A stretch of 64,000 nucleotides of DNA from Myxococcales bacterium. Its GTDB lineage: Bacteria > Myxococcota_A > Polyangia > Polyangiales > Ga0077539. The notes below the pieces were generated by a model. It searched no databases. It was not told the origin of the DNA and saw nothing but the letters and a program-made list of their open reading frames with translations. The position numbers were made by a program, and so were the translations under genes. Of the stretch, positions 1 through 43,669 are shown one piece after another. The DNA lies in the NCBI GenBank assembly GCA_013298625.1, contig JAAFIF010000016.1, positions 11,320-75,319 on the forward strand, in the 5' to 3' direction. Positions within the stretch are counted from its first letter, which is position 1; each line of letters begins with the position of its first letter.

Positions 1-84
1 CCCGGCGAGCCGTCGGCGCCATCCAAGCCCAAGGCGCCGACGGACCCCAGCGAGCCGTCGGACAACCCGTTCAGCGACGAGTGA
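1..84 (+). CDS. 3' end of an unidentified upstream gene (partial, runs off the left edge)
   Basis: Frame 1 is open from nt 1 to TGA at 82-84 (...PSEPSDNPFSDE*). Only 9 nt separate it from the GTG of the next gene, suggesting one operon. Function cannot be judged from 27 low-complexity residues. Confidence 0.35.
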   Translation, partial: PGEPSAPSKPKAPTDPSEPSDNPFSDE

Positions 85-93
85 ACCAACACC

Positions 94-1467: not shown

Positions 1468-1505
1468 GCGGGGGAGGGGGCGAAGCGCAACCGCGAGCCT
1501 GCTTG

Positions 1506-4393: not shown

Positions 4394-4493
4394 GGGGCGA
4401 ATCTAGCCCTGCGGATACGCGCTCAGCAAGCCGCGCGGGCGAGGGGGCGCTACCCTGCGTTGGCGCGCGCACGAGCGCGGTGTCGCCGATCGC

Positions 4494-7456: not shown

Positions 7457-7735
7457 CGCAGCGCGGGACGATGCCACGGCCCGCCCCGAGCACGGTGGAC
7501 GCGCTGTCAAGAAATTGGACAGCTGAATGCCTGCGCACCCCCCATCGACTTTGCTGCTTGTTCTTCAGGTCCCGAGCGATGCGTCTCGACCGTGCGAGGG
7601 GCGAACAATGTCTGTCGAAAACTGGCGACACGCCATCTGCGTGGGGCAGCTTCGGGCCGTATCCACATCCATAAGCGGTTCGATGTCCGGGTGATGCCGA
7701 CGTCGCGCCGCGCCACCAGAGAGGAACGGACTGTC

Positions 7736-8188
7736 ATGGACCTGCAGACGGAGATTCGAGCGTCGCTCGATCGCGCCAACACAGCGAGCGCGCGCCTTCA
7801 TCGCGCGACCGACGCGCTGAACAAGAAGCTCACCGAGGTCGAGGCCGCGCTCGTCGCGCAGTCGCTCGGCGTCTCGGCGAGCGTCGTCATCGAGAAGGGC
7901 GAGCTGACGCCCTCGTTGGTCGAGCTCTGCTTCACCAAGCGCAACAAGCAGTGGGGCCTGTTCATCGAGATCACGACGGACGTCTTGGCCTTCGAGAGCA
8001 CGCTCGCGCCCATCGTCAACGCGAGCCGCGAGCATCGCCTCGCCGCCGTGCGCGCGCTGCCCGAGCTCATCGCCCAGCTGGCCACCGCGGCCGAAGCGCA
8101 GCTCGCGTCGGTGCAAGCCGCGACCGTCACCGCGTCGAACATCCTCGACGCGCTGCTCGACGCGAACGACGAGGAGATCCCCTTCTGA
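7736..8188 (+). CDS. hypothetical 150-aa protein, predicted helical/coiled-coil
   Basis: This is the real part of track ORF 6089..8188. ATG at 7736 is preceded by GAGGA at 7721-7725. The stop overlaps the next ATG (TGATG at 8186-8190). No nucleotidyltransferase (GS...DxD) motif. Confidence 0.6.
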   Translation: MDLQTEIRASLDRANTASARLHRATDALNKKLTEVEAALVAQSLGVSASVVIEKGELTPSLVELCFTKRNKQWGLFIEITTDVLAFESTLAPIVNASREHRLAAVRALPELIAQLATAAEAQLASVQAATVTASNILDALLDANDEEIPF

Positions 8189-8748
8189 TGCGCTGGCAGG
8201 ACCTGATTCGCGAGGCGAGACGCCGCATCACCGGCCCCCGAGGACAAGCGCAGATCGCCCGGCGTCGCGCGGTCTCCGACGCCTACTACGCGTTGTTTCA
8301 CTGCGTCACCTCCACCGCCTCCGAGCGTTGGATCGGTGACAACCCGCTGGGGCCGCCGCTGGCCGAGCGGCTCGAGCGCTGGTTTCAGCACGGCCAGCTC
8401 AAGAAGGTCGCCCTGTGGGGGCTCGAGCACCCGCAGCCGCGCAACAGCGCGCCGCTCAAGCCCGCGGTGCTCGAGCTGCTCACGGACTCGAGCACCAGGC
8501 CTCCCACGTCGCTCCTCACGCCCGACGCGCGCCTCGCGCTGCAGGCCATCAAGGACCTGCAGGAGGCGCGACATCGCGCGGACTACGACCGCTCTCCGCA
8601 GGTGAACTTCACGCACACCGAGGCAGCCACGCTGATCGAACAAGCGCGGGACGGGTGCGACGCGATTCGACGGATGCGTCGCACCGCGATCGGACGCGTT
8701 CTGCTGGTGCTCATGTTGGTCGGCGACCAGGCCGCGCCCGCGCGCTGA
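8188..8748 (+). CDS. UPF0332/HEPN-like domain protein, 186 aa
   Basis: Starts MRWQDLIREARR at 8188. 'RRRAVSDAYYALFHCVTS' and 'LQEARHRADYD' match the two signature blocks of UPF0332-type HEPN proteins (the YYAxF helix and R-x-x-x-D-Y). Confidence 0.6.
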   Translation: MRWQDLIREARRRITGPRGQAQIARRRAVSDAYYALFHCVTSTASERWIGDNPLGPPLAERLERWFQHGQLKKVALWGLEHPQPRNSAPLKPAVLELLTDSSTRPPTSLLTPDARLALQAIKDLQEARHRADYDRSPQVNFTHTEAATLIEQARDGCDAIRRMRRTAIGRVLLVLMLVGDQAAPAR

Positions 8749-8792
8749 CCGCTCCGCGACGGGCGCGACGATGTGCTATGGTCGGGGACGCC

Positions 8793-9095
8793 ATGACGCT
8801 CGCCGCATCACTCTCGCGAAGCGACGACGACCTCGCGCAGCGCATCGCCGCCGCCGTCGTGAGCCACTTTCACGACCTTCGTCTCACGCGCGTGATCGCG
8901 CGCCTCGACCTCGATTGGTCCGGCGACGAGGCGGTGTACTTTCGCCTCGTCACGGACCGTGCGCCGACGTCGGCGCAGCTCGCGCCGGTCCGCGACTACG
9001 TGCAGCAGCGCGTCCATGCGGAGGGGTTGCAGCGCATTCCGTACGTCTCGGTGGTGCTCGCGTCCGAGCTCGACGAGCACGATCGAGCCCTCTGA
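8793..9095 (+). CDS. small hypothetical protein, about 100 aa
   Basis: This is the tail of track ORF 8415..9095. Candidate ATG starts are at 8778 or 8793. The stop lies 3 nt from the convergent hsdR stop. No recognisable motif. Confidence 0.45.
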   Translation: MTLAASLSRSDDDLAQRIAAAVVSHFHDLRLTRVIARLDLDWSGDEAVYFRLVTDRAPTSAQLAPVRDYVQQRVHAEGLQRIPYVSVVLASELDEHDRAL

Positions 9096-9098
9096 CGC

Positions 9099-12000
9099 TC
9101 AGCCAGCCTGCTGCCAGATGCGCTCGTGCAGCTCGCTGAGCACCTCGGCCAGCCGCCCGTCGAACCGCTTGTCCAAGACCGCGAACCCGCCGTCGCGCGC
9201 GAACTGGCCGCTCTCGAGGGCCTCGCGGTCCACGATCACCTCGAGCTTCACCTGCGCCGCGATCTTCGTGAGCCACTTGCGCTGGTGCTCGGTCCACGGG
9301 CGCGAGGCGAGCAGCGCCTTCAGCGCCCGATCGACGCGCTCTTCGTATGCGATCAGCGCGTCGCCCACCGCCCGCTGTCGCACGAAGCCCACGAGCCGCG
9401 CCGTCACGTCCACGTTGCTCACCGCGCGCGTCGCCGCTTGCAGCGCGCGCTCGTCGAAGCCGCCCCCTTCGAGCGCCGTCGCCAACGCGCGCAGATCCGC
9501 GCGGGTCAGGTCGCGCGGCCGCGTCGCCAGGATGCGCAGCGCGTCGACGCGGTTGCGATTGTCACGCACGAAGGCCTCGAACGCGTGCAGGTAGTCGTCC
9601 GGCGAGCGACCGCCGAAGTCCTGCCAGACCGCGGTGACCGTGTCCTCGCCCTTGTGAATCACCTTGCGACGGTCCCCGCCCGCCCGCGGCGCGTCGAGCC
9701 ACGCGATCAGCTCGGGGCGATCGACGAGCCAGCGCACGAAGTCCTCGCCGCTCGCGTCGTCCAGCGCGGATAGCGTCGCGCGCACCGGCTCTCCCGACAG
9801 CCCCTCGAACTCGTCCGCGAACGTCCGCTCGATCTGCGCGCGCTTGCGCCGCAGCTTGCGCGCGAAGTCCTCGCGCAGCGAGTCGCGGTAGCGCTCGCTC
9901 GTCCCTGGTTCGAGCGCCATGGTGGCGAGGTCCCGAAACGATCGCTTGGGGACGACCGCCGTCGGCCGCATGTCCGTCGCGTCGCCCACGAGCTCGCACT
10001 GCGAGACCGCGTCGAAGATGCGAAAGCACTCCTTGCTGATCTCGGGGCACAGCCGCGTCGCGCGCCCCAGCATTTGCTCGTACAGAATGCGGCTCTTCAC
10101 GCGCCGCAAGAACACCAGGTTGCAGATCGACGGGACGTCTACGCCCGTGGTGAGCAGGTCCACGGTCACCGCGATCGAGGGCATCCGCTCGTTGCGAAAC
10201 CGCCGAATGAGCTGGTCATACTTGTCTGAGCGCCCGGTGATCTTGAGCACGCACTCGTCGTCGACGCCGCCGAGCTGCGCGTCGAGCGCTTCTTTGAGCA
10301 GCCGCACGACCAGATCCGCGTGGCGATCATCCACGCAGAACACCAGGGTCTTGTCGGGCAGCACCGGGTCGATCCGCGTCGCCAACTCGGCGCACACCGC
10401 GCGGTTGAACCCTTCGGTGAGCACAGCGCGGTTGAAGTCGTCGACGTCGAAGCGTAGCTCGTCGGGCGCCTCGGTCGTCGCCGTCGCGTGCGTGACAGGA
10501 TCGTACGTGTCGATCGTCTCGCCGACCTTGAAGGTGATCCCCGCCCGCGACAGCTCGGTCTCGATGCGATACGGCGGCTCTTGCGGAGAGAGAAATCCCT
10601 CGGCGACGGCCTCGGTGTACGAGTAGCGAAACACCGGCGCGCCGAAGATCTCTGCCGTGTGCAGCGCGGGCGTGGCGGTCAGCCCGACCACCACGGCGTC
10701 GAAGCGCTCGATCACCCTGCGGTACTTCGAGACGTATTCGCTGAGGTCTTCGAAGGCGAGCTCGTCTTCGGTCGCCTCGCGATCGAGGGTGTAGCCCCGG
10801 TGGCACTCGTCGACGATCACGAGGTCGTACGCGTCGACCGCGGGCGCGTCGCGGTCGTCGTCCATCACCCGCTTCATGAGGGATTGGATCGTCGCGACGT
10901 GGACGTTGGTCTCTTTCGCGGGCTTTCGTCGGTCGAGCCCGGCGATGTTGTAGACCTCCCCCAAGGTGCGGCCTCCCAACATGCGCGAGGACGCGAAGGC
11001 CTCGGCGGTCTGGTCTCCGAGCGAGCGACGGTCGACGATGAAGAGCGCTCGACGAAAGCGCCGCGCTTCGAGCGCGCGATGGAGCAGGGCGGTGGCCGTG
11101 CGGGTCTTTCCTGTTCCCGTGGCCATCGCGAGGAGCATGCGACGGCGGCCGTCGAGCACCGCGTGCTCGAACGCGAGGATGGCGCTGCGTTGATAGGGCC
11201 GCAGGTCGAGTCGATCGAACGAGGCGTCGCGCAAGAGCGCGTCGGCGCGCGGGACGTCCTCGGACAAGCGCGCTTCGAGCCCCTCGGGCGAGACGAAGCC
11301 TTGCATCGCGCGCGCGTGATTCGTCGCGGCGCGCACGTCCAAGAACCACACTCCGCTCTCTTCTTCGAGCTGCGCGAGGTACGGCCGCCCGTTGCTCGCC
11401 AACAAGTACGGAACGCGGTGCTCTCTCCACGGCGCCCCCTCCACCAGCGCAGCCGCGCCGGGCTGAAAGTCCTTCGCGTAGCGCCGCGCCTGCTCGATCG
11501 CGCCCGAGACGTTGCGGTTGTCGCGCTTGGCCTCGATCACGGCTACCGCGCGGGTCCCGAGAAACAGCGCGTAGTCCGCGGGGCCGCTGGCCGTGGGCCA
11601 TTCAGCGATGGCGCGGTTGGTTCCGCTCTCGGGGCGCGCGCCGTCGGGGTAGCGAAGCAGCGTCGAGTCCGCCTCCCAGCCCGCCGCGCGGAGCTGGCTG
11701 TCGATGTCCCGACGGACGTCTTCTTCGCTTCGGACGAGGCTGCGCGCGGCTTCGTCCGAGCGCGCCAGAAAGGTTGCGATGGCCTCGCGCGGGTCCGTCG
11801 CGCGCGCGCGGGCTTCGTCCGCGAGCCGCAGGGCGTCGGCGAGGCTCGCTTCGAGCAGGCGCTTCTCTTCTTCGAGCCGCTCGCGCAGCCGCGACTCATC
11901 GAGCCGCCTCGCCTCCAGCGCGGTCAGCGACGCTTCGAGCGCGCGCACTTCGTCATCGGGGTCCGGCGGAACGCGAAACGTCGGCGCCACGAACGTCCGA

Positions 12001-12395
12001 TCGAAGCACGTCCGCTCGAACCACACGCACAGCGCCAGCGCGTCGCGCAGCGCCGAGAGCGCGTCGCTCGATTGCCCGTCGTACCGATGAGCGGCGTCGT
12101 TTCCGAGCTTTCGAATGCGATGAAAGATCGCGATCACATCGGGCGCGACCCGGCCGCCTTCGAGTCGATCGAGCACGTCGGCGAGGTTCTTGAGCAGCGC
12201 CGGGTTGATCCCGAGCCGCGCGGCGGCGTTGCGGCCCAAGAACTCCGAGGCCGTTCGCAGCCGAAACAGGCACGCCGGCGGGTCCCGTCGATAGTCTCGC
12301 TCAGCGTTCGCCAGCAGCGACTCGAGCTCCGATGATCGCGCGGCCACGAATCCGAAATTGAGAGACTTACCCGGAGCTCCGCTGGTCTTCCCCAT
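9099..12395 (-). CDS. hsdR: type I restriction enzyme R subunit HsdR (EcoEI-like C-terminus) with an N-terminal DUF4145/HEPN-like extension
   Basis: ATG at 12395 (alternative TTG at 12398). N-terminus 'FHRIRKLGNDAAHRY' (DUF4145-type). Nuclease core 'DYALFLGTRAVAVIEAKRD'. Helicase motifs 'LLAMATGTGKTRTA', 'VIVDECHRG', 'GLTATPA', 'QMLGRATR'. C-terminal 'DDYLHAFEAFVRDNRNRVDALRILATRPRDLTRADL' resembles the EcoEI R C-terminal domain. Confidence 0.92.
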   Translation of the reverse strand: MGKTSGAPGKSLNFGFVAARSSELESLLANAERDYRRDPPACLFRLRTASEFLGRNAAARLGINPALLKNLADVLDRLEGGRVAPDVIAIFHRIRKLGNDAAHRYDGQSSDALSALRDALALCVWFERTCFDRTFVAPTFRVPPDPDDEVRALEASLTALEARRLDESRLRERLEEEKRLLEASLADALRLADEARARATDPREAIATFLARSDEAARSLVRSEEDVRRDIDSQLRAAGWEADSTLLRYPDGARPESGTNRAIAEWPTASGPADYALFLGTRAVAVIEAKRDNRNVSGAIEQARRYAKDFQPGAAALVEGAPWREHRVPYLLASNGRPYLAQLEEESGVWFLDVRAATNHARAMQGFVSPEGLEARLSEDVPRADALLRDASFDRLDLRPYQRSAILAFEHAVLDGRRRMLLAMATGTGKTRTATALLHRALEARRFRRALFIVDRRSLGDQTAEAFASSRMLGGRTLGEVYNIAGLDRRKPAKETNVHVATIQSLMKRVMDDDRDAPAVDAYDLVIVDECHRGYTLDREATEDELAFEDLSEYVSKYRRVIERFDAVVVGLTATPALHTAEIFGAPVFRYSYTEAVAEGFLSPQEPPYRIETELSRAGITFKVGETIDTYDPVTHATATTEAPDELRFDVDDFNRAVLTEGFNRAVCAELATRIDPVLPDKTLVFCVDDRHADLVVRLLKEALDAQLGGVDDECVLKITGRSDKYDQLIRRFRNERMPSIAVTVDLLTTGVDVPSICNLVFLRRVKSRILYEQMLGRATRLCPEISKECFRIFDAVSQCELVGDATDMRPTAVVPKRSFRDLATMALEPGTSERYRDSLREDFARKLRRKRAQIERTFADEFEGLSGEPVRATLSALDDASGEDFVRWLVDRPELIAWLDAPRAGGDRRKVIHKGEDTVTAVWQDFGGRSPDDYLHAFEAFVRDNRNRVDALRILATRPRDLTRADLRALATALEGGGFDERALQAATRAVSNVDVTARLVGFVRQRAVGDALIAYEERVDRALKALLASRPWTEHQRKWLTKIAAQVKLEVIVDREALESGQFARDGGFAVLDKRFDGRLAEVLSELHERIWQQAG

Positions 12396-12479
12396 CAAGT
12401 GTTGAATGAAAGGTTAGGGCATTCGACGGCGGTCGGTCGAGCCATTCGCGCGCCGCGCCCTGCGATGGCTCCTCGCCGC

Positions 12480-13883
12480 TCACACGTCTCCCTCGCAGCG
12501 GCACACGAACGGGTCCATGCGCACCGCGCGATTGCACCGGCGTGTTCCGGTCGCGCACGGCGGCCCGAGCGCGCAGCTGTTGCCGCAGAAGCCGCAGTTG
12601 TCTTCGCTCGACAGGTCGGTTTCGCATCCGTTGGCGGGTTCACCGTCGCAGTTTGCGAAGTCCGGTCGGCAGCTCAACCTGCACGCGCCGTCCGTGCACG
12701 TTCCTCCGACCGCGTTGGCCGAGGCGCCGCACGCGCGATTGCACGCTCCGCAGTGCATCGCGCTCGACCTCGTGTCGACCTCGCAGCCGTTGGCCGGATT
12801 GCCGTCGCAGTCCGCGAATCCCGCAGTACAGGTGAGCCGACACGCGCCGCTCACGCACGTCGCGCTCGCGACGCGCTCGCCCATGCACGAACGCCCGCAC
12901 ATCCCGCAGTCCGTGATGGTGTTCAGCTGCGCTTCGCAGCCGTTGCGACCGTTGCCGTCGCAGTTGCCGAAGCCCGCGTTGCACGTAGAGACGGTACAAA
13001 CGCGCGTCACGCAGCTGCCCCCCATCGCGTTGGCGAAGTTGCACGGCATGTTGCAGCCCCCGCAGTGAAGCGTCGACGAGTTGGTGTCGACGCACGCTGC
13101 GCCGCAGCGCTCATTGGGAGCGGTGCAGGCGTCTTGGGCGACGCACGACCAGGTCATCATGTCCCTGTCGAACGCACACACCGGAGTGCCTCCGCTGCAG
13201 ACTGTTCCGCAATCGCCGCAGTTCGTGCCGGTGCCAAGCGACTCGCAGCCGTTGCTGGCGTTGCTGTCACAGTTGTCGTAGCCGCTCGCGCAACGCAACG
13301 AGTCGCACCGACCCGCGGTGCATCCGCGCACTGCGTTAGGCAGCGAGGGGCACACGTTGCCGCAGCGCCCGCAGTGATCGACGTTGTTGGAAGTCTGCAC
13401 GCACTGATCCCCGCAGCGCGTCTGTCCCGCGGGGCAGTCGTTTACGCACATCCCCGCGACGCACACCATTCCTGCAGTGCACGCGTTGCCGCAGCGGCCG
13501 CAGTGCGCAGTGGACTCGCTCGTGCGCGTCTCGCAGCCGTTGCTCGCGTCGCTGTCGCAGTTGCCGAAACCCGCCACGCACGCACCCACGACGCACTGGC
13601 CGTTGCCACACCTCGCCGTCGCGCTCGGCAACGCGCACTCCGTGCCGCAACGACCGCAGTTCACGACGCTCTCGGGCGTCTCGCACCCGTTGCTGCGGTC
13701 TCCGTCGCAGTCGAGCCTTCCGGCCGCGCAGCCGGTGCCGCTGTCCGTGCTCGCATCAGCGCTCGCATCGACGCTGACGCTCCCGTCGCGCTTGATGCCT
13801 CCGTCGAACGTCGGCTTCTCGTACAGCGTGCACGCCGAGAGCGCTGTCAGCAGCGCGCAGGACACCCATCGTGAAGCGCTCAT
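12480..13883 (-). CDS. secreted Cys-rich repeat lipoprotein
   Basis: Trimmed to the ATG at 13883 (MSASRWVSCALLTALSAC, lipobox). Six modules 'C-D-x4-NGCE-x6-9-CGxCGxxC' plus two variant modules. The start overlaps the upstream stop (TGATG). Confidence 0.8.
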   Translation of the reverse strand: MSASRWVSCALLTALSACTLYEKPTFDGGIKRDGSVSVDASADASTDSGTGCAAGRLDCDGDRSNGCETPESVVNCGRCGTECALPSATARCGNGQCVVGACVAGFGNCDSDASNGCETRTSESTAHCGRCGNACTAGMVCVAGMCVNDCPAGQTRCGDQCVQTSNNVDHCGRCGNVCPSLPNAVRGCTAGRCDSLRCASGYDNCDSNASNGCESLGTGTNCGDCGTVCSGGTPVCAFDRDMMTWSCVAQDACTAPNERCGAACVDTNSSTLHCGGCNMPCNFANAMGGSCVTRVCTVSTCNAGFGNCDGNGRNGCEAQLNTITDCGMCGRSCMGERVASATCVSGACRLTCTAGFADCDGNPANGCEVDTRSSAMHCGACNRACGASANAVGGTCTDGACRLSCRPDFANCDGEPANGCETDLSSEDNCGFCGNSCALGPPCATGTRRCNRAVRMDPFVCRCEGDV

Positions 13884-14704
13884 CAGAATGCTCCTCCCAT
13901 CACCAACGTCGTCCCGTTCGCCGAAGGAACCACCGCCACGCTCGTCCGCGTCGCCGCGCGCGGCCGCGTGACCGCGACCGCGACGCCTCCGGCGATGCCG
14001 AGGGCCACGGCCCCTGCGCCCAAGCCAAACATCAACCCGCCGCCGATGCTCGCGGTGTTGTACGTGCCCTCTTCGCTCGGCGGACAGTCGAGCCGACCGC
14101 CGATCGCGACGCAGCCGGACGCGCCCGTGTCGAACAGCCGCGCCGAGTTGACCGCGTACAGCGCCGCTCCCACGCCCGCGCCGACCGCGAGCGCCGCGCT
14201 CGTCCCGACGAGCGCCCACGGCCACGCAGGAGCGCGCTGCGGCGGTTCGATCGGCGGCTGAACGACCCGCGCGCGTCGCTCTCGCTCGATGCGCTCTTGC
14301 TCTGCCCGCTGCGCTTGCTGCGCGGTCTCTGCGGCGAGCTCACGGTCCGCGTCGGCGATCATGCGCTCGCACGTCGGCCGCGTCGGCGTCTCGCGCACGG
14401 CGTCGAGAAAATTGCGCAGCGCGCGCCTCCCCTCGGCCCAGTGCCGCAGCTGAATGTGCATCCGCCCGATGTTGAAGAGCACCACGGGGTCGTGCCCCTC
14501 GGTGTACGCCTGCTGGTAGAGCGTGAGGGCCGTCGCGTAGTCCGTCGCTTCTTGCGCGGCGTCCGCGCGGCGAAGCAGCGACTCGACGGCGCTCTCTTGC
14601 CGTGTTGGTGTGCGCTGCGCGTGCGCCGTGCGCGCGCTGCAAATCGAGAGCGCCGCGGCGGCTGCGACGACGAGCGATCGGTGGGTGCGGGGTGTGCGAT
14701 CCAT
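13883..14704 (-). CDS. secreted/membrane protein with a TPR-like segment and a Gly/Ala-rich C-terminal TM region
   Basis: Trimmed to the ATG at 14704 (MDRTPRTHRSLVVAAAAALSICSARTAHA, signal peptide). 'YATALTLYQQAY...VLFNIGRMHIQL' is TPR-like. The hydrophobic stretch is 'WPWALVGTSAALAVGAGVGAALY'. Confidence 0.7.
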   Translation of the reverse strand: MDRTPRTHRSLVVAAAAALSICSARTAHAQRTPTRQESAVESLLRRADAAQEATDYATALTLYQQAYTEGHDPVVLFNIGRMHIQLRHWAEGRRALRNFLDAVRETPTRPTCERMIADADRELAAETAQQAQRAEQERIERERRARVVQPPIEPPQRAPAWPWALVGTSAALAVGAGVGAALYAVNSARLFDTGASGCVAIGGRLDCPPSEEGTYNTASIGGGLMFGLGAGAVALGIAGGVAVAVTRPRAATRTSVAVVPSANGTTLVMGGAF

Positions 14705-14854
14705 GAAGACTGCGTTTCTCTGCGGTTCTGCGCCGTCTCGACCGAGGCCGTCGCGGTGAGTCATCCTGGAGTGTACCGCGATCGCCCGTCGAAATAGGCC
14801 ATTTCTGCGCGATCGCCCCCCTCGGCGACCGAAGCTGAAATGAGCGCGCGCGGT

Positions 14855-17800
14855 TCAACCTGCGACGGACTCGACCAGCGCTTGCAAGACGCGCATCTCG
14901 TCGGCGTCCGTGAATCGCTGCACGGCGCGGTTCATCTCGCCCAGCACTGCCACCGCGTACACCCTGTGCGCGCGTCGCGCGTCGGGGCTCGTCAGCAGCG
15001 AAGCGCCGACCGAGTGGCGCGTGTACACCGTCGCGGTCGCGGTGCTCGACTCGTAGCTCGCGAGCACGCCTGGGGCTCGCTCGTCGCTGACGCGAACGGC
15101 GCTGAGGTCTCGCTCGACCACGCCGTGAGAGCGAAGAAGCTCGAGCACGTGGTCGGCCAGCGTGAGCTCGCGCGGCGCGGCCTTGGGCTTGTCCTTGCGC
15201 GGCTCGTCGGCGGGCTGCTTGCGCTGCGGAGTCGCTGCGGTTTGCGCGGGGACGGCGGGCGCGGGCTGCGGCGCCACGGGCGCGGCTGCGGCGGGCTCCG
15301 CGGGCTCAACGCGAGCAGGCGAGGCGGCGTGCACGAGCGCGAGCTCTTCGAGCACTTGAAACCATCGCTGCGTCGATCGCTGAACGACGAAGCGCTCTTG
15401 CGCGGATCGCGCGTCCCCTTCTGGGCAGAGCTCGAGGATGTTGCCCTCGGCGAGGTGCGCTTCGAGCCGCGCGAACGTCGTGCACGAATCGGGGAGCAAT
15501 CGATCCGCGGCCCACTTCTTCAGCGCGTTGGTGTCGAGAGCGCGCGCGGCGGCGGCGTAGGCGAGGTGCGCATAGACGAGCTCGGACGACGCGGTCTTCG
15601 ACGCGATGAGCTGGCCGAGCATCGCGCGGTACGACCACCGAGCGAGCTCGACGACCTGGTGGGCGATGGTCACGTCGGCGGCTGTTCCGTGGTTGAACCA
15701 GAGCTGGCCGCCGATCGGGAGCGAGTCGACCCGAGAGGTCTGAACGGCGCCGCGCGTGTCGTGCATGCGCAGCGTGCTCTCGCCGGGCTCGCGCACGTCG
15801 ATGCGGCCTGGCTCGAGCGGGTCGGCGAGCAGCCACAGAACGCCGATCGCCCGCGTGGCTCCGCCGCGGATCGAAGGGCTGCCCGCGCTGTTGGTGCGCA
15901 CCATCGCGAGGGCGCTCGGCGGCGCGACGAAGTGCGCGTCGATCGCCGCGCGCACGAGCTCGGCGACCCGCGCGCGCGTGCGGTGAAACGCCGAGTCCTC
16001 GACGGGCGCGGTCTCGCTGCGGTTCGGCTTGAGCTCTCCCACTTCGATCGCCACGAGCGCAGGCCAAGGCGAGCCCGTCTCGGTCTCGCCGAGCGGCTTG
16101 CGCCCTTGCCAGAGAAACACCTTCGCGACCGGCGCTGCCCGCGAGGGCATGAGCAGAACCTCTCCCTCGAAATCGTGCTCTTTGATCGTCAGCGGGTAGG
16201 CCGGCGTGTTGGCCGGGACGCTCTGCCGCACGACGATGGTCTTGGCCGGCGCGAGCTTTCGTCGCGCGATCGCCTGCTGCTCTTCGTGAAGGGCGTCCGT
16301 GTAGTCGAGCGGGACGCGCGCCCCGGTGATCCACGGGGCCTCGGCCTCGCTCAGCCGAAGCACGCGCCGCCCGCTGTCGAGCGGCTCGAGGGGGACGCCG
16401 CTCGTGTTCTTCGTGTACGCGACGTTGCCGAACTTCGCTTGCTGCTCGTCGATGTCTGCCAGGGTCATCGCAGCGCCGAGCGAGTCGAAGAAGGCCTTTC
16501 GCTCGCGCAGAGACTTGATGTTGCTCGGGCCCTGCAACAGCGCCCAGCGCTGCGCTGGCAGCGACCACGCCGGCAGCTCGTCGCCTTTGCGCATCGCTTC
16601 GGTGAGCAATTTTCGGGCGATTCCGACGATCCGCTGCGCGAGCGCGTCGGGAAACTCCCCTTTGCGCGCCTGCTCTTCGCTGAGCGCCGACGTCTCGATC
16701 GCGACCGAAATCGCGATGGGCGAGGGCGCCTCGATCAGCCGCACCGCCTGCGCGTGCAGAAACAAATGAACCAAGAGCTTGTTCGCTCCCGACGTCGTCA
16801 CCCGCAGCTCGCCCACGCCGAGCTTGGGCTCGACGTCTTCGATGCGACAGCGAAGCGCCGCCGACGGAGCGCTCCCCGCGAGGGCGATGTTCTCCTTTGC
16901 GCTGCGCAGGAGCCGCCTCGTTCGCTGCAGCCGGTCGAAGTCTTCCGTCGCGTCGCGAGGCGCCAGCGTGGTCGTGAACTCGAGCGTGCGAAGCACCGCG
17001 CGACGAAACTCTTGCGCGGCCTCGCGCTTGTCCGTCGGCCCGTCGGGCAGCGGCTCGAGGTAGGCGGCGATCGGGTCCGTCTCGCCGTCGGGCGCGGGGA
17101 TCCACCCGTCGAACTCCCGCGAGACGTAGAGCACTCTGCCCTTTCCGTGCACCGCGCACTGCTCGGCGCTCGCGAGCCCCGAAGGGATCGCCTTCCACAG
17201 CACCGCGCGGCCCACGCGCGCGCGCAGCTTGTCGTCCACTCTGCCTGCGTCCCCGCAGAACGCCGCGACCAACGCGCGCACCGACGCTCCTGGATCGCTC
17301 GCGCCGCTCGCGTCCTTGCACACCTCTTCGACGAGCTTGCGAAGAGCCCTCTTGCTCGCGATGGTGAGCGTCGCGAGCCCCGCGGACGTGAGCCCGTCGA
17401 GGGTCGCGTTGAGGGCTTTCTCCGGGGCCGCGAAGCGCACGCGAAAGACCACAGGGCAGCTCATCAGGTCGGTGCCCGTCACCTCGCCGGCCACCGCGAC
17501 GCGATCGCGAACGATCACCTGGTACCGCGCCCGGCCGGGCGTCGGCAGAAGCCCCATGGCGCACTCGTAGTGCTCTTGCTGGACCGTGACCGTCGAGCTC
17601 ACGCGAAACTCGCTCAGGTCTGCGAAATTGACGGTGGACTGCCGCTCGAACGCCTCGAGCGCCAGCCGCGTCTTGCGCACCTCTCGCCGCTGCGGAACCA
17701 CCGAGTCCGCCGCGATGAGCTTCGCGCCGATGCCGACCGCGAGCGCCGCTTCGAACTCTCCGCGCGAGACCACCAGGGGTTCGAAGTCGTCGTCGTAGTC

Positions 17801-20545
17801 GATGTCGTCCGGCGCGTGCTCGACTGTGAACAAGCCCGCGGGCTTGCTCTTGGCTCGCTCGCGAAGGGCGCTCAGCGAGAGGGTCTGCGGCCCGTTCTTC
17901 GTTCTCACCGTCACGAGCGGCAGCTCTTCGCACCGCCGCAAGAGCGCAAAATGCGTGGTCTTCGAGAGCGTCCCGCGCTCTTGCTCCGGCGGCAGCGCCC
18001 GCAGCCTCGCGGTCGCGACGAAGATAAACGACAGGACGTGCTGCGGTGGTGACCAGGGAAGCGATACGTCGAGCATCCGCGCCGCCTCGCGGTCGCCGCC
18101 GATCGCGCGGAGCATGCAAAACAACAGATCGAACGGCGCCTCGTCGTAGAGCTTTCGCGCGTCCGCAGAGAGCTGCGCGCGCGAGAAATCCTTGCCCGGC
18201 CGCGGGATCAGCGCCTTGTCGTGCACGCGCAGCAGGCAGCGCCCGAACGGCCCCGTGTCCGACGCTTGCGAGACGACCTGCCCCGCGTGCAAGAGCGCGA
18301 AGTGCGCGTTGCGCGGCGCGACGCACACCTTCGCCACGGCGTCCGCTTCGATCAGCGAGAGCCACGGCCCGCTCGCCCCGCTCGAGGCGTCCTTGGCGAG
18401 CTGAGCGCGCATCGCGTCGCCGTCGCCCTTCGCGAAGCGCCCGTAGTCGACCAGCTCGCTGTCACCCAGCAGCGCGCCCACCAGCTGCCGCTGGGGCTCG
18501 CTCAGCAACAGCACCGGCGCGCGCGGGTGCTCGGGGCACTCTTTGTTGCTCGTGTACAGCACCGCGCCGCCGCACTGCTCGCTGACCGCTCGAAGCTCGG
18601 CGATGGACCAGCGCCGACCGTTGACCCCAGTGAACAGCGGCACTCGCTCGACCGCCGGCGCCGCAGTCAGCAGCTCGGACAAGCGCGCTCGGGCCGCCTT
18701 GGTCGAGCGGTTCTCGCTGTGCATGCGCAGCGCGAGCTCGACGATCACCGCGCGCTCGCGCTCGTTGAATTTGTGTGCCGCGGGCCCCATCCAGTGCACC
18801 CGCTCGTCGCCCGCGCACGCCTTCGGGTCCGCGACGAACGTCGCCGTAAACCACAGCGCGTCCGCCGCCGCCGCCGTGAGCTTCTCGACCAGCGCGTTGA
18901 GGGCCGCAGAGCGCTCGGGGCCCGAGAAGTCCGCGCGCGCCGTGATGCTCTTGTGCTGGATCGCCGCTTGGATCAGCAGCGGCCCCGCGGCCTCGGCGCT
19001 CGCGGGCAGGGGGCGTCCCTCGACGAAGACCACGAGCTCCATCGCGCGATCGGCGCCGGTCGAGCGGTGGATCACGAGCTCTCCCTCGATCGATCGATCG
19101 CCGTTGATCACGATGGCGGGGCCCGCCGTCGCGCCGTCGCGCCGCGCCTCGCCGATCAGCGCGCGCACGAGCTCGCTCGAGCCGTTGCCAGACACCCGCG
19201 CCTCCCGCGGCTGGTGCGCGAGAAACCGCTGATACCTCGCGTGCGACTCCTCAGCGTGCGCGAGCGCGACGTCGGCGTCCTTCGGCTCGAGCGGCTCGAT
19301 CAGCGCCGAGATCGTCTCGTCCGTCGCGTGCACGACGTTGGTCAGCCACGGGGCGAGCGCCGCGGACGGCAGCTTTTCTCCTCGAAAGAGCATGACTCCG
19401 CCGCGCTCGACCGACGCGAGGTCCGCGAGCGACCGCGGCTTCGCGTTGACCATCGGGATCAACGGCGCGCGCAGCGCGGGCTGCAAGAACAGGTCGTCCC
19501 GCGAGGCCTCGGGCTTCGCCGCGACGACGACCCAGTCGCTGCCGAGCTTGCGCAAGATCAACGCGCGCAGCGCGGCCGCGGTCTCTGCGCCGTGCGCGGA
19601 CTGCAGCGCCTCGACGGCGGCGGTGATGAGCCTGCTCTTGGCGTCCTCGAGCGCGCGGCTGAGCTGCCTGCCGTACGAGCCCGAGCGGTCGATGGCCGAG
19701 CGCGAGACGTTGGTGGGCAGCGAGGGCTCGTCGACGTACGCCCGCAAATTCTGTGGTGGATCGCCGCCGAAGAGCGCCTCGCGCGAGAGCAGCACGCCGC
19801 GCTCGTAGAAGTCTACGACGTCCATCTCGCGCTCGATCGCGCGCACGAGGGCGAGCTCTCCGCGCACTTTTTCTGCGAGCGGGACGCGCACGAGCGCCGG
19901 CGGCGGCGCGCCGCGGTCGAGCTCGGCCCCGTCGACAGCGCGCACGATCGACGCAGGGACGAGCAGGCACCGGGTGCGCAGGACCTTGCTCTCGACGGGC
20001 TCGCCGAACCATTCGCGAACGACGTTGGTGCCGAATCGCTCGCGCACGTGCACGCGGAGGGAGGTGTCGGTGAAACCCTCGGGGGCAGGCACCCATTCGA
20101 GCGCGCCGTCGATCGCGGGCTCCTCTCCCTCGGCCGTGGGAACGAACCGCACGCGCGCGACGGCGCCGTCTTTGCGCTCTGCGCCCGTGTACACGTCGAC
20201 GAACTTCGGCCCGAGCCCGAGCGCGGTGTTGGTCGCGATCGCCAAGAGCCGCACCGCTCGCGCGTCGCTCGAGAAAAGCTGCTCGAACAGCCGCACGATC
20301 AGCTCGGGCTTCGGCGGCTCGGCTTTGCATACGCACTCGAGCGAGAAGTCCCTCGCTGTGTTGTCGACGGTGATCTTCTGCGCGCCGAGCTCGACGGCGA
20401 CGCGCACGAGCTCGGCGACGTACAGCGCGGGGTCGGGCAGCATGAACTCGCGCAATTTCGCGATGGCCGCGCGCGGATCGACGCCGACGGCGCCGCGCGC
20501 GAGGACTCGGCGCTCGCCCGATGGCTTCTGTGCTTCTCTGCTCAT
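14855..20545 (-). CDS. giant (1896 aa) protein with a degenerate Hsp90/GHKL-like N-terminal domain and five about 240-275-aa internal repeats
   Basis: Uninterrupted 5.7-kb ORF starting 9 nt after the stop of the upstream GHKL ATPase gene. N-terminus 'LPDPALYVAELVRVAVELGAQKITVD' aligns by eye with 'FADPLAFYRELVQNSIDAGASAIDVR' of the upstream protein, but the N-box Asn/Asp and the DxGxG box are lost. 'LPTNVSRSAIDR' keeps the Hsp90 middle-domain loop. Confidence 0.8.
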   Translation of the reverse strand: MSREAQKPSGERRVLARGAVGVDPRAAIAKLREFMLPDPALYVAELVRVAVELGAQKITVDNTARDFSLECVCKAEPPKPELIVRLFEQLFSSDARAVRLLAIATNTALGLGPKFVDVYTGAERKDGAVARVRFVPTAEGEEPAIDGALEWVPAPEGFTDTSLRVHVRERFGTNVVREWFGEPVESKVLRTRCLLVPASIVRAVDGAELDRGAPPPALVRVPLAEKVRGELALVRAIEREMDVVDFYERGVLLSREALFGGDPPQNLRAYVDEPSLPTNVSRSAIDRSGSYGRQLSRALEDAKSRLITAAVEALQSAHGAETAAALRALILRKLGSDWVVVAAKPEASRDDLFLQPALRAPLIPMVNAKPRSLADLASVERGGVMLFRGEKLPSAALAPWLTNVVHATDETISALIEPLEPKDADVALAHAEESHARYQRFLAHQPREARVSGNGSSELVRALIGEARRDGATAGPAIVINGDRSIEGELVIHRSTGADRAMELVVFVEGRPLPASAEAAGPLLIQAAIQHKSITARADFSGPERSAALNALVEKLTAAAADALWFTATFVADPKACAGDERVHWMGPAAHKFNERERAVIVELALRMHSENRSTKAARARLSELLTAAPAVERVPLFTGVNGRRWSIAELRAVSEQCGGAVLYTSNKECPEHPRAPVLLLSEPQRQLVGALLGDSELVDYGRFAKGDGDAMRAQLAKDASSGASGPWLSLIEADAVAKVCVAPRNAHFALLHAGQVVSQASDTGPFGRCLLRVHDKALIPRPGKDFSRAQLSADARKLYDEAPFDLLFCMLRAIGGDREAARMLDVSLPWSPPQHVLSFIFVATARLRALPPEQERGTLSKTTHFALLRRCEELPLVTVRTKNGPQTLSLSALRERAKSKPAGLFTVEHAPDDIDYDDDFEPLVVSRGEFEAALAVGIGAKLIAADSVVPQRREVRKTRLALEAFERQSTVNFADLSEFRVSSTVTVQQEHYECAMGLLPTPGRARYQVIVRDRVAVAGEVTGTDLMSCPVVFRVRFAAPEKALNATLDGLTSAGLATLTIASKRALRKLVEEVCKDASGASDPGASVRALVAAFCGDAGRVDDKLRARVGRAVLWKAIPSGLASAEQCAVHGKGRVLYVSREFDGWIPAPDGETDPIAAYLEPLPDGPTDKREAAQEFRRAVLRTLEFTTTLAPRDATEDFDRLQRTRRLLRSAKENIALAGSAPSAALRCRIEDVEPKLGVGELRVTTSGANKLLVHLFLHAQAVRLIEAPSPIAISVAIETSALSEEQARKGEFPDALAQRIVGIARKLLTEAMRKGDELPAWSLPAQRWALLQGPSNIKSLRERKAFFDSLGAAMTLADIDEQQAKFGNVAYTKNTSGVPLEPLDSGRRVLRLSEAEAPWITGARVPLDYTDALHEEQQAIARRKLAPAKTIVVRQSVPANTPAYPLTIKEHDFEGEVLLMPSRAAPVAKVFLWQGRKPLGETETGSPWPALVAIEVGELKPNRSETAPVEDSAFHRTRARVAELVRAAIDAHFVAPPSALAMVRTNSAGSPSIRGGATRAIGVLWLLADPLEPGRIDVREPGESTLRMHDTRGAVQTSRVDSLPIGGQLWFNHGTAADVTIAHQVVELARWSYRAMLGQLIASKTASSELVYAHLAYAAAARALDTNALKKWAADRLLPDSCTTFARLEAHLAEGNILELCPEGDARSAQERFVVQRSTQRWFQVLEELALVHAASPARVEPAEPAAAAPVAPQPAPAVPAQTAATPQRKQPADEPRKDKPKAAPRELTLADHVLELLRSHGVVERDLSAVRVSDERAPGVLASYESSTATATVYTRHSVGASLLTSPDARRAHRVYAVAVLGEMNRAVQRFTDADEMRVLQALVESVAG

Positions 20546-33667: not shown

Positions 33668-33704
33668 CCGCAGGGGCGGGGGAGATGCGCGCGATCGCGC
33701 TGCT

Positions 33705-33908
33705 GCGCGCCGTCGAGTCGGCGCGCTTGCGTGCGGCGCAGCCGACAAGCGCTCGGGCACGAGGCCCGAGCTGAGGCAGGCGAGCATGAGCGCGGCGGGC
33801 GCGAGAGCGTGCAGAAGCGCTGGTGCTTCAGCGGGAGAAGTGAGTCGCCTAAGCCCAGGCTCTTGCCTGGGCGCTCGTTGGCTGCGCCACGCGCGAGCGC
33901 GCCATCTT
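33705..33908 (-). repeat. fourth copy (inverted orientation) of the about 200-bp structured repeat that flanks the transposase at 42.3-43.6 kb
   Basis: Its reverse complement aligns by eye along its whole length with 42303-42503. It contains hairpins GCTCGGGC-acgag-GCCCGAGC (33751-33771) and CCCAGGC-tctt-GCCTGGG (33854-33871). It starts 38 nt after the MATE stop. It is followed by a 20-nt motif 'atggcgcaccgaagccacgc' present twice, 33 nt apart (33910-33929 and 33943-33962). Confidence 0.85.
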
Positions 33909-34029
33909 GATGGCGCACCGAAGCCACGCGCGCCCCATCAACATGGCGCACCGAAGCCACGCAATCCCCCTCTTGGATGGCGCGCCGCACGCCGGGCCCG
34001 CGCCGAACGCCCCCGTACGCGCCGCTCGC

Positions 34030-41852: not shown

Positions 41853-42302
41853 TCGTCGAAGAGACTACGCGAATGCCCCACCCCCACGCGACCACAACGC
41901 GTGCGCGGCCGCGGAGTGACGCGCTAGTCGCGCGGAGCGAGCGTCGGTTCGAGCGGTTGAAGTGCGCGATGGCCGGCCGCTCTTCGCGTGCATCAATCGA
42001 GTCGTAGAATAGAGGGTGGAAGGTCGAAGATTGTGCCAATGAAGTCGTTAAACAGAGGTTCGACCCTTGGCGTTTGTCTAAATAAGGTCATGGTTTATAG
42101 GTTAGTCCCTTGGATTTCGCGTGTTTGATGGGAGTATCTGTGTCGTTTGCGGCAAATAATGTGGCGTTCGTGCGTGCAAATCATGTCTCGCAACTGGGCC
42201 ATTGAGGCTTCGAGAGCCTGAAACACGGAGCTGCTACTCAGGGGTAGGGCCCTCGATGCTCGGGTTTCTATGCCGTCTGGGCGCGTACGGCCCGCGCCAT
42301 CG

Positions 42303-42503
42303 AAGCTGGCGCGCTTGCGCGTGGCGCAGCCAACGAGCGCCCTGGCATCCGCCAGGGCTTTAGGCAACTCGGGTCTGCCTCTGAAACACCAGCGCTCCGT
42401 CATGTTGTGGCCCCCGTTCGCTCGCGCTCACGTGCCTCAGCTCGGGCTTCATGCCCGAGCGCTTGTCGGCAGCACGCAAGCGCGCCGACTTTGACGGCGC
42501 GCG
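42303..42503 (+). repeat. structured repeat R1 (201 bp)
   Basis: Identical to 43394-43594. Terminal inverted repeat GGCGCGCTTGCG / CGCAAGCGCGCC. Internal hairpins CCCTGGC-atcc-GCCAGGG (42340-42357) and GCTCGGGC-ttcat-GCCCGAGC (42440-42460). Confidence 0.9.
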
Positions 42504-42521
42504 TGGCCTCCGCGCGCCGTC

Positions 42522-42725
42522 AAGTCGGCGCGCTTGCGCGTGGCGTCGCCAACGAGCGCCTTGGCATCCGCCAGGGCTCAGGCAACTCGGCTCTCCCTGT
42601 GAAACACCAGCGCTTCAGCACACAGCCGCGCCCGCACGCTCGCGCTCACGTGCCTCAGCTCGGGCCTCGTGCCCGAGCGCTTGTCGGCAGCGCCGCACGC
42701 AAGCGCGCCGACTTGACGGCGCGCG
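42522..42725 (+). repeat. structured repeat R2 (diverged tandem copy)
   Basis: Same ends and the same two hairpins as R1, but a diverged central segment of about 25 nt. It is joined to R1 by the palindrome GACGGCGCGCG-tggcctc-CGCGCGCCGTC (42493-42521). Confidence 0.85.
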
Positions 42726-42864
42726 AGGGCGCGTGATGGCGACGGGGTTGGCTTCACCGTGCGGCGCAGGACGCTCGTGACTGCCTGTGGTTGCTTCGCT
42801 TCAGTCAGCGCGCCGCTCGACGACGCTCCGCAACTCTGGTTGCGCAACTGCGAGAACGCTCGTC

Positions 42865-43365
42865 ATGAGCAAAGTCGTTCGACGGCATTTTATCCATCTG
42901 GTGTGGTCCACTCGGGGGCGGAGCGCCGTGATCGACGCTGCGCGCGCGGAGTTCGTGCACGAGGCCATCGCGGCGCAGTGTTTTCGACTCGACTGCGGAG
43001 TGATCGCAGTCTCGACCAGCGTCGACCACGCGCACTTGCTTTGCCGAGTGTCTCCTAAGGTGCCCGTGATGGAGCTGGTTCGCGCGACGAAGAGCGCCAG
43101 CTCTGTGCTGTTCAACCGTGCCTTCGGCGCGGACGTGCTTCGCTGGCAAGAGGGGTACGGGGAGTTCTCTGTATCTCCATGGGACGTCGCAGCCATCGCA
43201 GAGTACGTGAAGAACCAGCGCACCAGACACGAGAGCGGCGAGGTCGATCAATGGCTCGAAGATGTTCCTCGCCGCGACAAACGCGCAGATCATCCGCAGG
43301 CGCACTCGATCGAGACGCAAACAGACGCTCCGACAATGTTGCTGCAAACGCGCTCCCGACGTTAG
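42865..43365 (+). CDS. IS200-like Y1 HUH transposase / REP-associated tyrosine transposase (RAYT)-like protein, 166 aa
   Basis: Trimmed to the ATG at 42865 (MSKVVRRHFIHLVWSTRGR...). HUH motif 'VDHAHLL' and catalytic-Tyr helix 'AEYVKNQRTRH' (Y-x-x-N-Q-x-x-H). Confidence 0.85.
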   Translation: MSKVVRRHFIHLVWSTRGRSAVIDAARAEFVHEAIAAQCFRLDCGVIAVSTSVDHAHLLCRVSPKVPVMELVRATKSASSVLFNRAFGADVLRWQEGYGEFSVSPWDVAAIAEYVKNQRTRHESGEVDQWLEDVPRRDKRADHPQAHSIETQTDAPTMLLQTRSRR

Positions 43366-43393
43366 TCGACAGCGTGGCCTCCGCGCGCCATCC

Positions 43394-43594
43394 AAGCTGG
43401 CGCGCTTGCGCGTGGCGCAGCCAACGAGCGCCCTGGCATCCGCCAGGGCTTTAGGCAACTCGGGTCTGCCTCTGAAACACCAGCGCTCCGTCATGTTGTG
43501 GCCCCCGTTCGCTCGCGCTCACGTGCCTCAGCTCGGGCTTCATGCCCGAGCGCTTGTCGGCAGCACGCAAGCGCGCCGACTTTGACGGCGCGCG
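43394..43594 (+). repeat. structured repeat R3 (201 bp, identical to R1)
   Basis: Read base by base against 42303-42503 with no difference found. It starts 28 nt after the transposase stop. Confidence 0.9.
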
Positions 43595-43669
43595 GGCAGC
43601 GCGCGGGCCGCACGCACGCGCGCCGACTCGCACCGCCCCCGCGAAGCCCCCCCCTTTGCTACGCCGCGA

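Follow-up and report, generated by a model that had tools for sequence, protein, structure and literature searches.

An element of about 1.36 kb (approximately 42280-43646) lies between a phosphoenolpyruvate carboxykinase (PEPCK) gene and a Ser/Thr-kinase gene of a Polyangiales genome, in a stretch of 64,000 nucleotides (contig JAAFIF010000016.1 of assembly GCA_013298625.1) that we refer to as the window. It consists of tnpA, a gene for an HUH (histidine-hydrophobic-histidine) transposase of the Y1 type, and of copies of a foldback repeat, R, on either side of it. It is best described as an element that has recently been active or recombining in its Polyangiales lineage. We regard it, at a probability of about 60%, as a mobile element with an IS200-related Y1 transposase of subclass 1.2, R foldback ends and solo or non-autonomous derivatives, and not as a domesticated REP-associated tyrosine transposase (RAYT; REP, repetitive extragenic palindrome), the identity given to it in an earlier reading of the same letters (the original prediction). 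Related contigs and loci are designated by L numbers (Table 1).

The transposase and its class

The IS200-like Y1 transposase that had been predicted between the repeats is encoded by an intact open reading frame (ORF) and scores 68 bits against the Pfam Y1_Tnp model. Its motifs are DHAHLL (with H55 and H57 of the HUH pair), WQEGY (W94-Q95) and YVKNQRTRH (Y114, Q118 and H122), so named by residue, and its catalytic residues are intact; DHAH, Y114-V-K-N-Q118 and an IS608-like predicted fold place it in the HUH/Y1 superfamily. Against NCBIfam it matched the IS200 equivalog model NF033573 with 63.1 bits, above the cutoff of 55, and none of the other models even at E<=10. The closest sequences in the PDB were IS608 TnpA (E 7.7e-7), ISDra2 and archaeal IS200 TnpAs; the Escherichia coli RAYT 4ER8 was not matched by the TnpA sequence (phmmer, E<=10). 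An AlphaFold model of the protein (pLDDT 88) matched IS608 TnpA with an E value of 3.6e-9 in Foldseek, where IS608, ISDra2 and IS200 structures took ranks 1-29 (about 4e-9 to 5e-7) and 4ER8 followed at rank 30 (E 1.1e-5).

In the published classification of TnpA-Y1 proteins (Quentin, Siguier, Chandler & Fichant 2018; PMC6006769) subclass 1.1 (IS200) has the motifs DH[VI]H, W[TS] and Y[IV]ENQ, is multi-copy and has subterminal hairpins. Subclass 1.2 has DH[IV]H, WQ and YIKNQKEHH, is low copy, is described as "REP: no" and without the properties of an insertion sequence (IS), and has mainly cyanobacterial or Bacteroidetes hosts. Class 2, the RAYTs, has a Y---NP motif and is associated with REPs. 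Our assignment is made at the level of motifs, together with hidden Markov models, nearest neighbours and structure. DHAH, WQ and YVKNQ stand where subclass 1.1 has its motifs, and YVKNQ is likewise found in place of the Y---NP of class 2; the sole GTGG (42321-42324) lies, by inspection, in a linker and not at a hairpin foot, where GT[AG]G would be expected of a RAYT-associated repeat. With TnpA as query 3,176 representative proteins were retrieved at E<=1e-3, and all of the best 150 of these 3,176 HMMER relatives carry WQxGY and Y---Q--[RH]H. In an alignment of 23 relatives D54, H55, H57, W94, Q95, Y114, Q118 and H122 are invariant, the position before the last His of the signature being R or H. 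Because of the DHAH/WQEGY/YVKNQRTRH motifs, the motifs shared by the 150 relatives and the invariant residues, TnpA is, as judged from its sequence, a TnpA-Y1 of subclass 1.2, IS200-related and not a RAYT.

The RAYT identity advanced by the original prediction thus does not survive the Y---Q motif, the score above the IS200 cutoff and the poor showing of 4ER8 in sequence and structure. The alternative that it had itself named, grouping with ordinary IS200 elements, holds in one part: the protein belongs to class 1, which is IS200-related, but within it to subclass 1.2, which is not IS-like, and the locus showed no subterminal hairpin ends of the canonical IS200 kind, its hairpins being present as 210-nt foldback units.

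Compared with a 90%-identical homologue tnpA is under purifying selection, with a ratio of nonsynonymous to synonymous divergence (dN/dS) of 0.21 overall and 0.07 in the core. It is compositionally foreign, with 72% G+C at third codon positions (GC3) against about 91% in the PEPCK gene and a HerA-like gene, and 62% G+C overall against 70% for the window. There is one tnpA in the 64 kb, and its own protein cluster was seen on one contig; an exact look-up of this TnpA in the contig index had no match. In the leader upstream of it the promoter-distal part is variable and the last ~75 nt before the ATG are kept in L001, a contig of a second lineage; no sigma-70-like promoter was found there, and a scan for promoters and terminators gave nothing above expectation.

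Many of the best HMMER relatives (P0005-P0009, P0011, P0012, P0016-P0019 and others) are about 270-320 residues long and have two tandem Y1_Tnp domains, frequently just one of them with an intact Y---Q--HH motif. They look like single-chain pseudo-dimers of a normally dimeric transposase, and we found no description of such tandem forms in the TnpA-Y1 classification paper.

Repeat R and the sites it occupies

R, about 210 nt long, has inverted arms at both ends, which measure about 50-60 nt and enclose a spacer of about 90 nt whose sequence is poorly conserved; in each arm a linker joins a terminal hairpin to an inner one. The inner hairpins are H1 (CCCTGGC-ATCC-GCCAGGG) and H2 (GCTCGGGC-TTCAT-GCCCGAGC). 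A single strand of R should therefore fold into one long hairpin, in the manner of a REPIN (a hairpin-forming pair of inverted REPs). Indeed the arms (45-61 nt) are ~80-87% complementary, and R combines inverted palindrome modules, a variable spacer and a whole-unit hairpin, as REPINs do. The predicted fold of R1 is one long hairpin plus two internal hairpins, with a free energy of -75 kcal/mol and z scores of -4.2 as DNA and -5.4 as RNA, and a compensatory change in H1 (U-A to A-U) is present in R4 and in L095. The 27-mer core of R occurs three times against zero expected, and this together with the folding scores excludes chance.

R1 (42303-42503) and R3 (43394-43594) are in direct orientation at an offset of 1091 and agree at 201 of 201 bases; the run ends in mismatches at 42302 and 42504, and beyond the former another nine bases (42293-42301) agree. 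R2, in tandem with R1, is ~83% identical to it as a whole unit and 85-90% in individual repeat blocks, and is the positional orthologue of the upstream unit of L001, with which the window aligns continuously over 855 nt (42512-43364 against 9692-10500). The loop of the R1/R2 junction palindrome is the 7-nt TGGCCTC (42504-42510), and a spacer remnant, GCGTGGCCTC, is found in this junction and again just before R3. Longer arms, of which the 12-bp terminal inverted repeat (GGCGCGCTTGCG / CGCAAGCGCGCC) is the core, extend over 27 nt (85% complementary) in R1 and over 61 nt (82%) in R2. The original prediction had called R1 and R3 identical and direct, R2 a tandem unit, and the junction an 11-bp-stem palindrome, and had given each unit a 12-bp terminal inverted repeat and two internal hairpins; all of this was recovered, and the z scores above are the outcome of the folding check that it proposed, as single-stranded DNA and as RNA. 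Its comparison with REPINs also stands, given the inverted hairpin arms, variable spacer and whole-unit foldback. The unusual length claimed for the units holds only to a moderate degree, since Pseudomonas REPINs with 110-bp spacers exist (PMC3337134).

R also occurs away from the transposase, as a REPIN-like family would. A mismatch-tolerant search together with an nhmmer profile of the window uncovered R4, which sits between MatE and MFS transporter genes with two to three short terminal-hairpin repeats, which brings the window to four copies at two loci; outside it, L095 and L109 have a solitary copy each. The pair that flanks tnpA is 100% identical in the window and 98-100% identical in L001 and L003, whereas every other pair, including R1 with R2 or R4, is 71-83% identical; the flanking units themselves are 76-83% identical to those of the other genomes and to further copies in their own. 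The flanking pair is therefore homogenised locally, and conversion or duplication between the direct repeats on either side of tnpA, very recent in either case, is the best explanation for the identity of R1 and R3. The R family as a whole is old.

Searches of larger collections added little to these copies. A metagenome search for the R hairpin with 23 specified bases matched three contigs, of which L095 alone holds a real, solitary R; L096 and L097 were rejected as coincidences in coding sequence. The invariant 18-mer TGCCCGAGCGCTTGTCGG had among the matches listed from the genome collection only chance hits in unrelated GC-rich genomes, none of them an R unit; the viral collection gave no match, and Rfam returned sub-threshold hairpin look-alikes (plant and animal miRNA families, SorX) that we judged spurious. 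R as a coding sequence was ruled out, the overlapping ORFs all being spurious products of high G+C, and the short terminal hairpins were rejected as independent dispersed REPs, no further copies being present in the window. In L095 (4116-5801, minus strand) an ORF that encodes only the last ~55 positions of Oxidored_FMN and then a complete Pyr_redox_2 domain is overlapped at its 5' end by the solitary R, which may here border a truncated 2,4-dienoyl-CoA-reductase-like gene.

The myxobacterial host that had been supposed is confirmed by the PEPCK, which is 95% and 92% identical to its best named matches, from metagenome-assembled genomes of Polyangiales and Myxococcales. The spacer between the PEPCK and kinase genes exists in filled, solo-R and empty states (Table 1), and the right boundary of the element (~43646) was estimated from the empty sites of L110 and L112. 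On the left the element starts with the 11-mer GGCGCGTACGG, whose second copy in the window is at 34013-34023 on the minus strand; both copies form the left boundary, in the orientation of R, of an R-containing insertion. In L110 the end of the downstream gene comes immediately after the MatE stop codon and the 359-nt R4 segment (33668-34026) is absent, and this segment is therefore also an insertion. Relative to L110 it begins 3 nt ahead of GGCGCGTACGG, and its right tail, GCAGCGCG...CCCCCGC, is similar to that of the full element. No target-site duplication is visible at the R4 insertion, the one cleanly bounded site, and the two insertion sites gave no convincing common target motif.

Between the kinase start codon and the left end of the element the window has a non-coding segment (41853-42279) whose G+C content drops to 47% at 42000-42200 (window 70%). 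L109 has this segment too (91% identity), and the empty sites in L110, L111 and L112 lack it; it had no Rfam match and no second copy in the sequences compared. Its origin may be an older insertion, or it may be a promoter or leader that evolves fast.

L109 carries a solo-R allele of the site. Its alignments to the window, 1-12174 against 55541-43381 and 11946-20445 against 42519-34021, overlap by exactly one R unit: a single R stands in place of R1-R2-tnpA-R3, and there is no tnpA within the 21.9 kb. This R has the left flank of R1 and the right flank of R3, and its arms agree with theirs down to a 5-nt deletion specific to the lineage; its centre (~100 nt) differs from R1 = R3 and resembles R2 and R4. 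With an R2/R4-like centre between R1- and R3-type flanks it is a mosaic that requires gene conversion. The finding of a single R in a contig ~98% identical to the window supports the very recent dynamics that the identity of R1 and R3 had been taken to imply.

Synteny between L109 and the window stops exactly at the R4 insertion (window 33668-34026, L109 20380-20560). Here L109 keeps GCGCGCCATCGAAGGCGC alone, a sequence similar to the terminal hairpin of R, and the genes beyond it are different, which suggests an R-associated rearrangement.

The association of tnpA with R is shown in two lineages at different loci. A TnpA 90% identical to that of the window (P0002) is encoded on four metagenome contigs from four samples, L001-L003 and a contig of 706 bp. 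L001-L003 share one context: tnpA and a HerA-like gene converge, an RHS toxin gene is close by, and direct R units lie on both sides of tnpA, together with partial right-arm copies in tandem and arrays of ~24-nt terminal hairpins. The HerA-like orthologue of the window is at 94-1467, 41 kb from tnpA (L001 copy 10962-12358); the two share 68% protein identity, and no R remnant was found beside the window gene. Synonymous divergence (dS) between the window and the L001 lineage is 0.26 for tnpA against 0.67 for this HerA-like pair, the only shared neighbouring gene.

Repeats beside other subclass 1.2 genes

We examined six distant subclass 1.2 genes (27-39% identity), and structured repeats adjoin the gene at all six loci: four have inverted brackets and one a direct bracket, all five made of two-hairpin repeats of 52-78 nt, and the sixth (L113) has four REP-like hairpins ahead of it (Table 1). 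This contradicts the published descriptor "REP: no" for subclass 1.2, which was based on a search for GT[AG]G-footed hairpins (PMC6006769). An element of ~54 nt is common to four of the loci: a first hairpin (TGAA loop) is followed by a linker like CTGCAACAACGCAAAG and a second hairpin, and the stems show clear compensatory changes (covariation). A covariance model built from nine arms finds its training sites alone (52-63 bits) and detects neither the R arms of the window nor the arms of L101; the cis elements are therefore clade-specific. We do not claim homology of the R arms to the distant two-hairpin element, the likeness being one of analogous architecture only.

At L107 at least 11 tandem copies of a 13-nt unit (~GGCGCGGACCGCG) lie directly upstream of the left inverted repeat (2738-2945). 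At L113, on the Bernardetia sp. plasmid NZ_CP147018.1, four hairpin motifs of 23-29 nt (AAGTTGCAGAGCAACGTAATAT) at 19793-19973 lie 28-210 nt upstream of a gene annotated as "IS200/IS605 family transposase", whose product is a canonical subclass 1.2 protein; no further copies of the motif were found within 40 kb.

Table 1. Features of the window, states of the PEPCK-kinase spacer in related contigs, and repeats at distant subclass 1.2 loci.
Sequence	Feature	Position	Strand	Description
Window	left-terminal motif GGCGCGTACGG	42280-42290	+	11-mer, two copies in the 64-kb window
Window	R1	42293-42503	+	211-nt foldback repeat unit
Window	R1/R2 junction palindrome	42493-42521	+	11-bp stems GACGGCGCGCG (42493-42503) and CGCGCGCCGTC (42511-42521)
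Window	R2	42512-42725	+	divergent unit, ~83% to R1/R3; head to tail after R1
Window	leader	42726-42864	+	between R2 and the tnpA start codon
Window	tnpA	42865-43365	+	predicted 166-aa Y1 HUH transposase of subclass 1.2 type; intact ORF
Window	spacer remnant and R3	43372-43594	+	remnant GCGTGGCCTCCG at 43372-43383; R3 at 43384-43594
Window	right tail	43595-43646	+	degenerate partial right-arm copy; 42-nt copy at 43606-43647
Window	R4, solitary insertion	33668-34026	-	core unit 33691-33918; left-terminal motif; right tail; short hairpins
Window	PEPCK-kinase spacer			1817 nt; R1-R2-tnpA-R3
L109	PEPCK-kinase spacer			795 nt; one R, without tnpA; PEPCK 99% (~98% nt identity over 20 kb)
L110 (GCA_046351515.1)	PEPCK-kinase spacer			97 nt; empty, without R; PEPCK 95%
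L112	PEPCK-kinase spacer			147 nt; empty, without R; PEPCK 94%
L111 (GCA_016793325.1)	PEPCK-kinase spacer			131 nt; empty, without R; PEPCK 92%
L099	inverted repeats bracketing gene			60 nt, 98% complementary
L099	~54-nt element	2903-2961, 3426-3484
L108	inverted repeats bracketing gene			53 nt, 98%
L108	~54-nt element	2920-2973, 3408-3461
L107	inverted repeats bracketing gene			78 nt, 86%
L107	~54-nt element	2930-2982, 3454-3506
L101	direct repeats bracketing gene			52 nt, 96%; third copy inverted
L098	repeats on both sides of gene			single arm upstream, inverted doublet downstream
L098	~54-nt element	1440-1493, 1967-2074
L113 (Bernardetia, complete replicon)	REP-like hairpins			four, in alternating orientation, just upstream of gene

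Origin of the element and comparison with known systems

By analogy with IS608, ISDra2 and the TnpA-REP system of E. coli, TnpA would bind, cleave and move R. A TnpA dimer may bind the arm hairpins on transiently single-stranded DNA and would cut and rejoin at the element boundaries without target-site duplications, its cargo being the whole R-tnpA-R element or tnpA-less units served by TnpA in trans. Homologous recombination and gene conversion would act on the R copies that flank tnpA because these are direct repeats, homogenizing the flanking pair (R1 = R3). Recombination at R could delete or re-acquire the 1091-bp R2-tnpA-R segment and so give the solo-R allele, and might also yield mosaic units and rearrangement breakpoints. 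The tnpA-less units may have been mobilized in trans, in the way of REPINs or of palindrome-associated transposable elements (PATEs), or may be recombination relics like solo long terminal repeats (LTRs); the shared outer flanks fit both.

Several observations weigh against a mobile element of this kind. We identified no guide or cleavage-site pairing that links TnpA to R. Just two tnpA-less copies (R4 and L095) stand at sites of their own, the third (L109) occupying the tnpA site. Within one genome R copies have diverged (77-83%) as much as copies from different genomes, and R1/R3 aside there is no sign of a recent burst. The covariance model misses the R arms and so gives no evidence that the cis elements of the subclass are homologous. 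Relatives of TnpA are nearly absent from plasmids (2 of 72,556 records), unlike typical IS200, which fits the non-IS-like copy behaviour reported for subclass 1.2. The dS comparison involves one neighbouring gene of uncertain orthology. Finally L109 is a metagenome assembly in which a repeat-flanked loop might have collapsed; against such a collapse, its R centre differs from R1 = R3, and no tnpA at least 90% identical is present from the same sample in the protein collection.

The strongest competitor, though in our view an unlikely one, is an ordinary autonomous IS in which only the full R-tnpA-R unit transposes, R is never mobilized in trans, and R4 and the R units of L095 and L109 are recombination relics comparable to solo LTRs. 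The L109 allele, with the left flank of R1 and the right flank of R3, is what an R1 x R3 exchange should give, and R4 shares the outer left motif and a similar right tail with the full element. The solitary copies are old and diverged (71-82% identity), the protein exceeds the NCBIfam IS200 equivalog cutoff, and a tnpA of foreign composition sits at different loci in different lineages. Yet the L109 R is not identical to R1 = R3, so that another copy must have contributed to it by at least one conversion; the 64 kb hold one tnpA, and the 100%- and 90%-identical proteins were each seen at a single locus (the latter on four contigs, of which L001-L003 share their context). Moreover subclass 1.2 is reported to be low-copy and not IS-like (PMC6006769), and the arrays of partial arms and short hairpins near tnpA resemble local processing of the type seen in REPs and bacterial interspersed mosaic elements (BIMEs) more than simple IS ends.

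A classical RAYT or REPtron, that is a domesticated, vertically inherited transposase that upholds a genome-wide REP/REPIN population for its host, appears very improbable. It would account for a Y1 transposase, seemingly single-copy (one in the window), that is flanked by hairpin-forming repeats found elsewhere too, and for a REPIN architecture with variable spacer as in Pseudomonas (PMC3337134). Many relatives even bear the JGI (Joint Genome Institute) label "RayT", but the label is unspecific: 150 of the 150 best relatives have the motifs of subclass 1.2 and not Y---NP. Against it stand the Y---Q motif of TnpA, the failure to match 4ER8 by sequence and its rank of 30 by structure, and the lack of an evident GT[AG]G-footed REP hairpin. 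Nor does the locus behave as a domesticated gene would, contrary to the original prediction: it is absent from three sister genomes (L110, L111 and L112), polymorphic in the 98%-identical L109, at a different locus in the L001 lineage and foreign in its GC3. We consider it very improbable that R is an unrelated foldback miniature inverted-repeat transposable element (MITE), moved by some other transposase (for example of the DDE type), which gathers round tnpA or into a cluster of which tnpA was inserted. The long terminal inverted repeats (27-61 nt) without coding capacity and the existence of solitary R copies would suit a MITE, and no logic for the recognition of R by TnpA emerged. However, R-tnpA-R with a homogenized pair recurs at another locus together with a tnpA of 90% protein identity (dS 0.26), and the other subclass 1.2 genes have hairpin repeats of their own beside them at six of six loci (four inverted brackets, one direct). 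In addition, the R4 insertion lacks a visible target-site duplication and no other transposase gene was noticed near the R units.

A wider reading, which we put forward tentatively and at slightly less than even odds, is that subclass 1.2 could be the transposase of unrecognized, phylum-spanning small elements whose ends are two-hairpin modules, placed right beside the gene on both sides, be it in inverted or in direct orientation. R would then be a Polyangiales expansion that spreads or persists without the gene, a class 1 REPIN/RAYT-like origin independent of class 2.

HUH/Y1 transposases serve as the model of single-strand "peel and paste" transposition and of the way in which bacteria come by genome-wide populations of REPs and REPINs. 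Subclass 1.2 is widespread, and the only description of it that we found gives it neither IS ends nor REPs; the element described here offers this orphan subclass a candidate substrate. The arm hairpins, the left-end 11-mer and the insertion boundaries are candidate substrates, and filled, solo and empty alleles exist in nature; the question of what subclass 1.2 acts upon is therefore directly testable in vitro. If the link between TnpA and R is true, REPIN-like partnerships would have arisen more than once from IS200-like ancestors, and long foldback repeats would drive deletion, conversion and rearrangement in large myxobacterial genomes. A literature search of incomplete coverage found no earlier description of such repeats in Myxococcota.

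Set beside subclass 1.2 as published (PMC6006769), TnpA shares the W-Q motif, a signature close to the consensus (YVKNQRTRH for YIKNQKEHH), a short C-terminal tail past the core and seemingly low or single copy number. It differs in its Polyangiales host, in the structured repeats that bracket the gene, in its insertion with empty sister sites, and in having Ala instead of Ile/Val as the middle residue of the HUH motif and Arg for the first His of the HH pair, as in many relatives. With the IS200/IS605 elements (IS608, ISDra2, IS200) it has in common the best sequence and structure matches, the layout of HUH plus Y-x-x-x-Q, hairpin-forming DNA in the same orientation on either side of tnpA, no visible target duplication, and tnpA-less derivatives comparable to PATEs. 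It departs from them in having W-Q for W[TS] and YVKNQ..H for Y[IV]ENQ, in the lack of tnpB, in ends that are 210-nt foldback units and not small subterminal hairpins, and in copy behaviour, multiple near-identical tnpA copies not being in evidence and relatives being nearly absent from plasmids.

Like the RAYT/REPIN REPtron (Nunvar 2010; Bertels & Rainey 2011; Ton-Hoang 2012) the locus has a Y1 transposase among presumed cognate palindromic repeats, two inverted hairpin modules with a variable spacer that fold as one hairpin, solitary intergenic copies, and tandem BIME-like arrays with a fixed spacer (TGGCCTC). Unlike it, the protein is of class 1, without Y---NP, the repeats have no GT[AG]G foot, the flanking units are direct, the two-hairpin arms measure ~50-60 nt against ~20-40 nt for a REP, and the locus is polymorphic and non-syntenic and is not vertically inherited. 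TIRYTs belong to class 2, mainly 2.1, and have helix-turn-helix (HTH) tails and GGGG[AT][CG]A[CG] repeats (PMC6006769), none of which features is found here; what they share with the present loci is a Y1 gene bracketed by long inverted repeats, most clearly at L099, L107 and L108.

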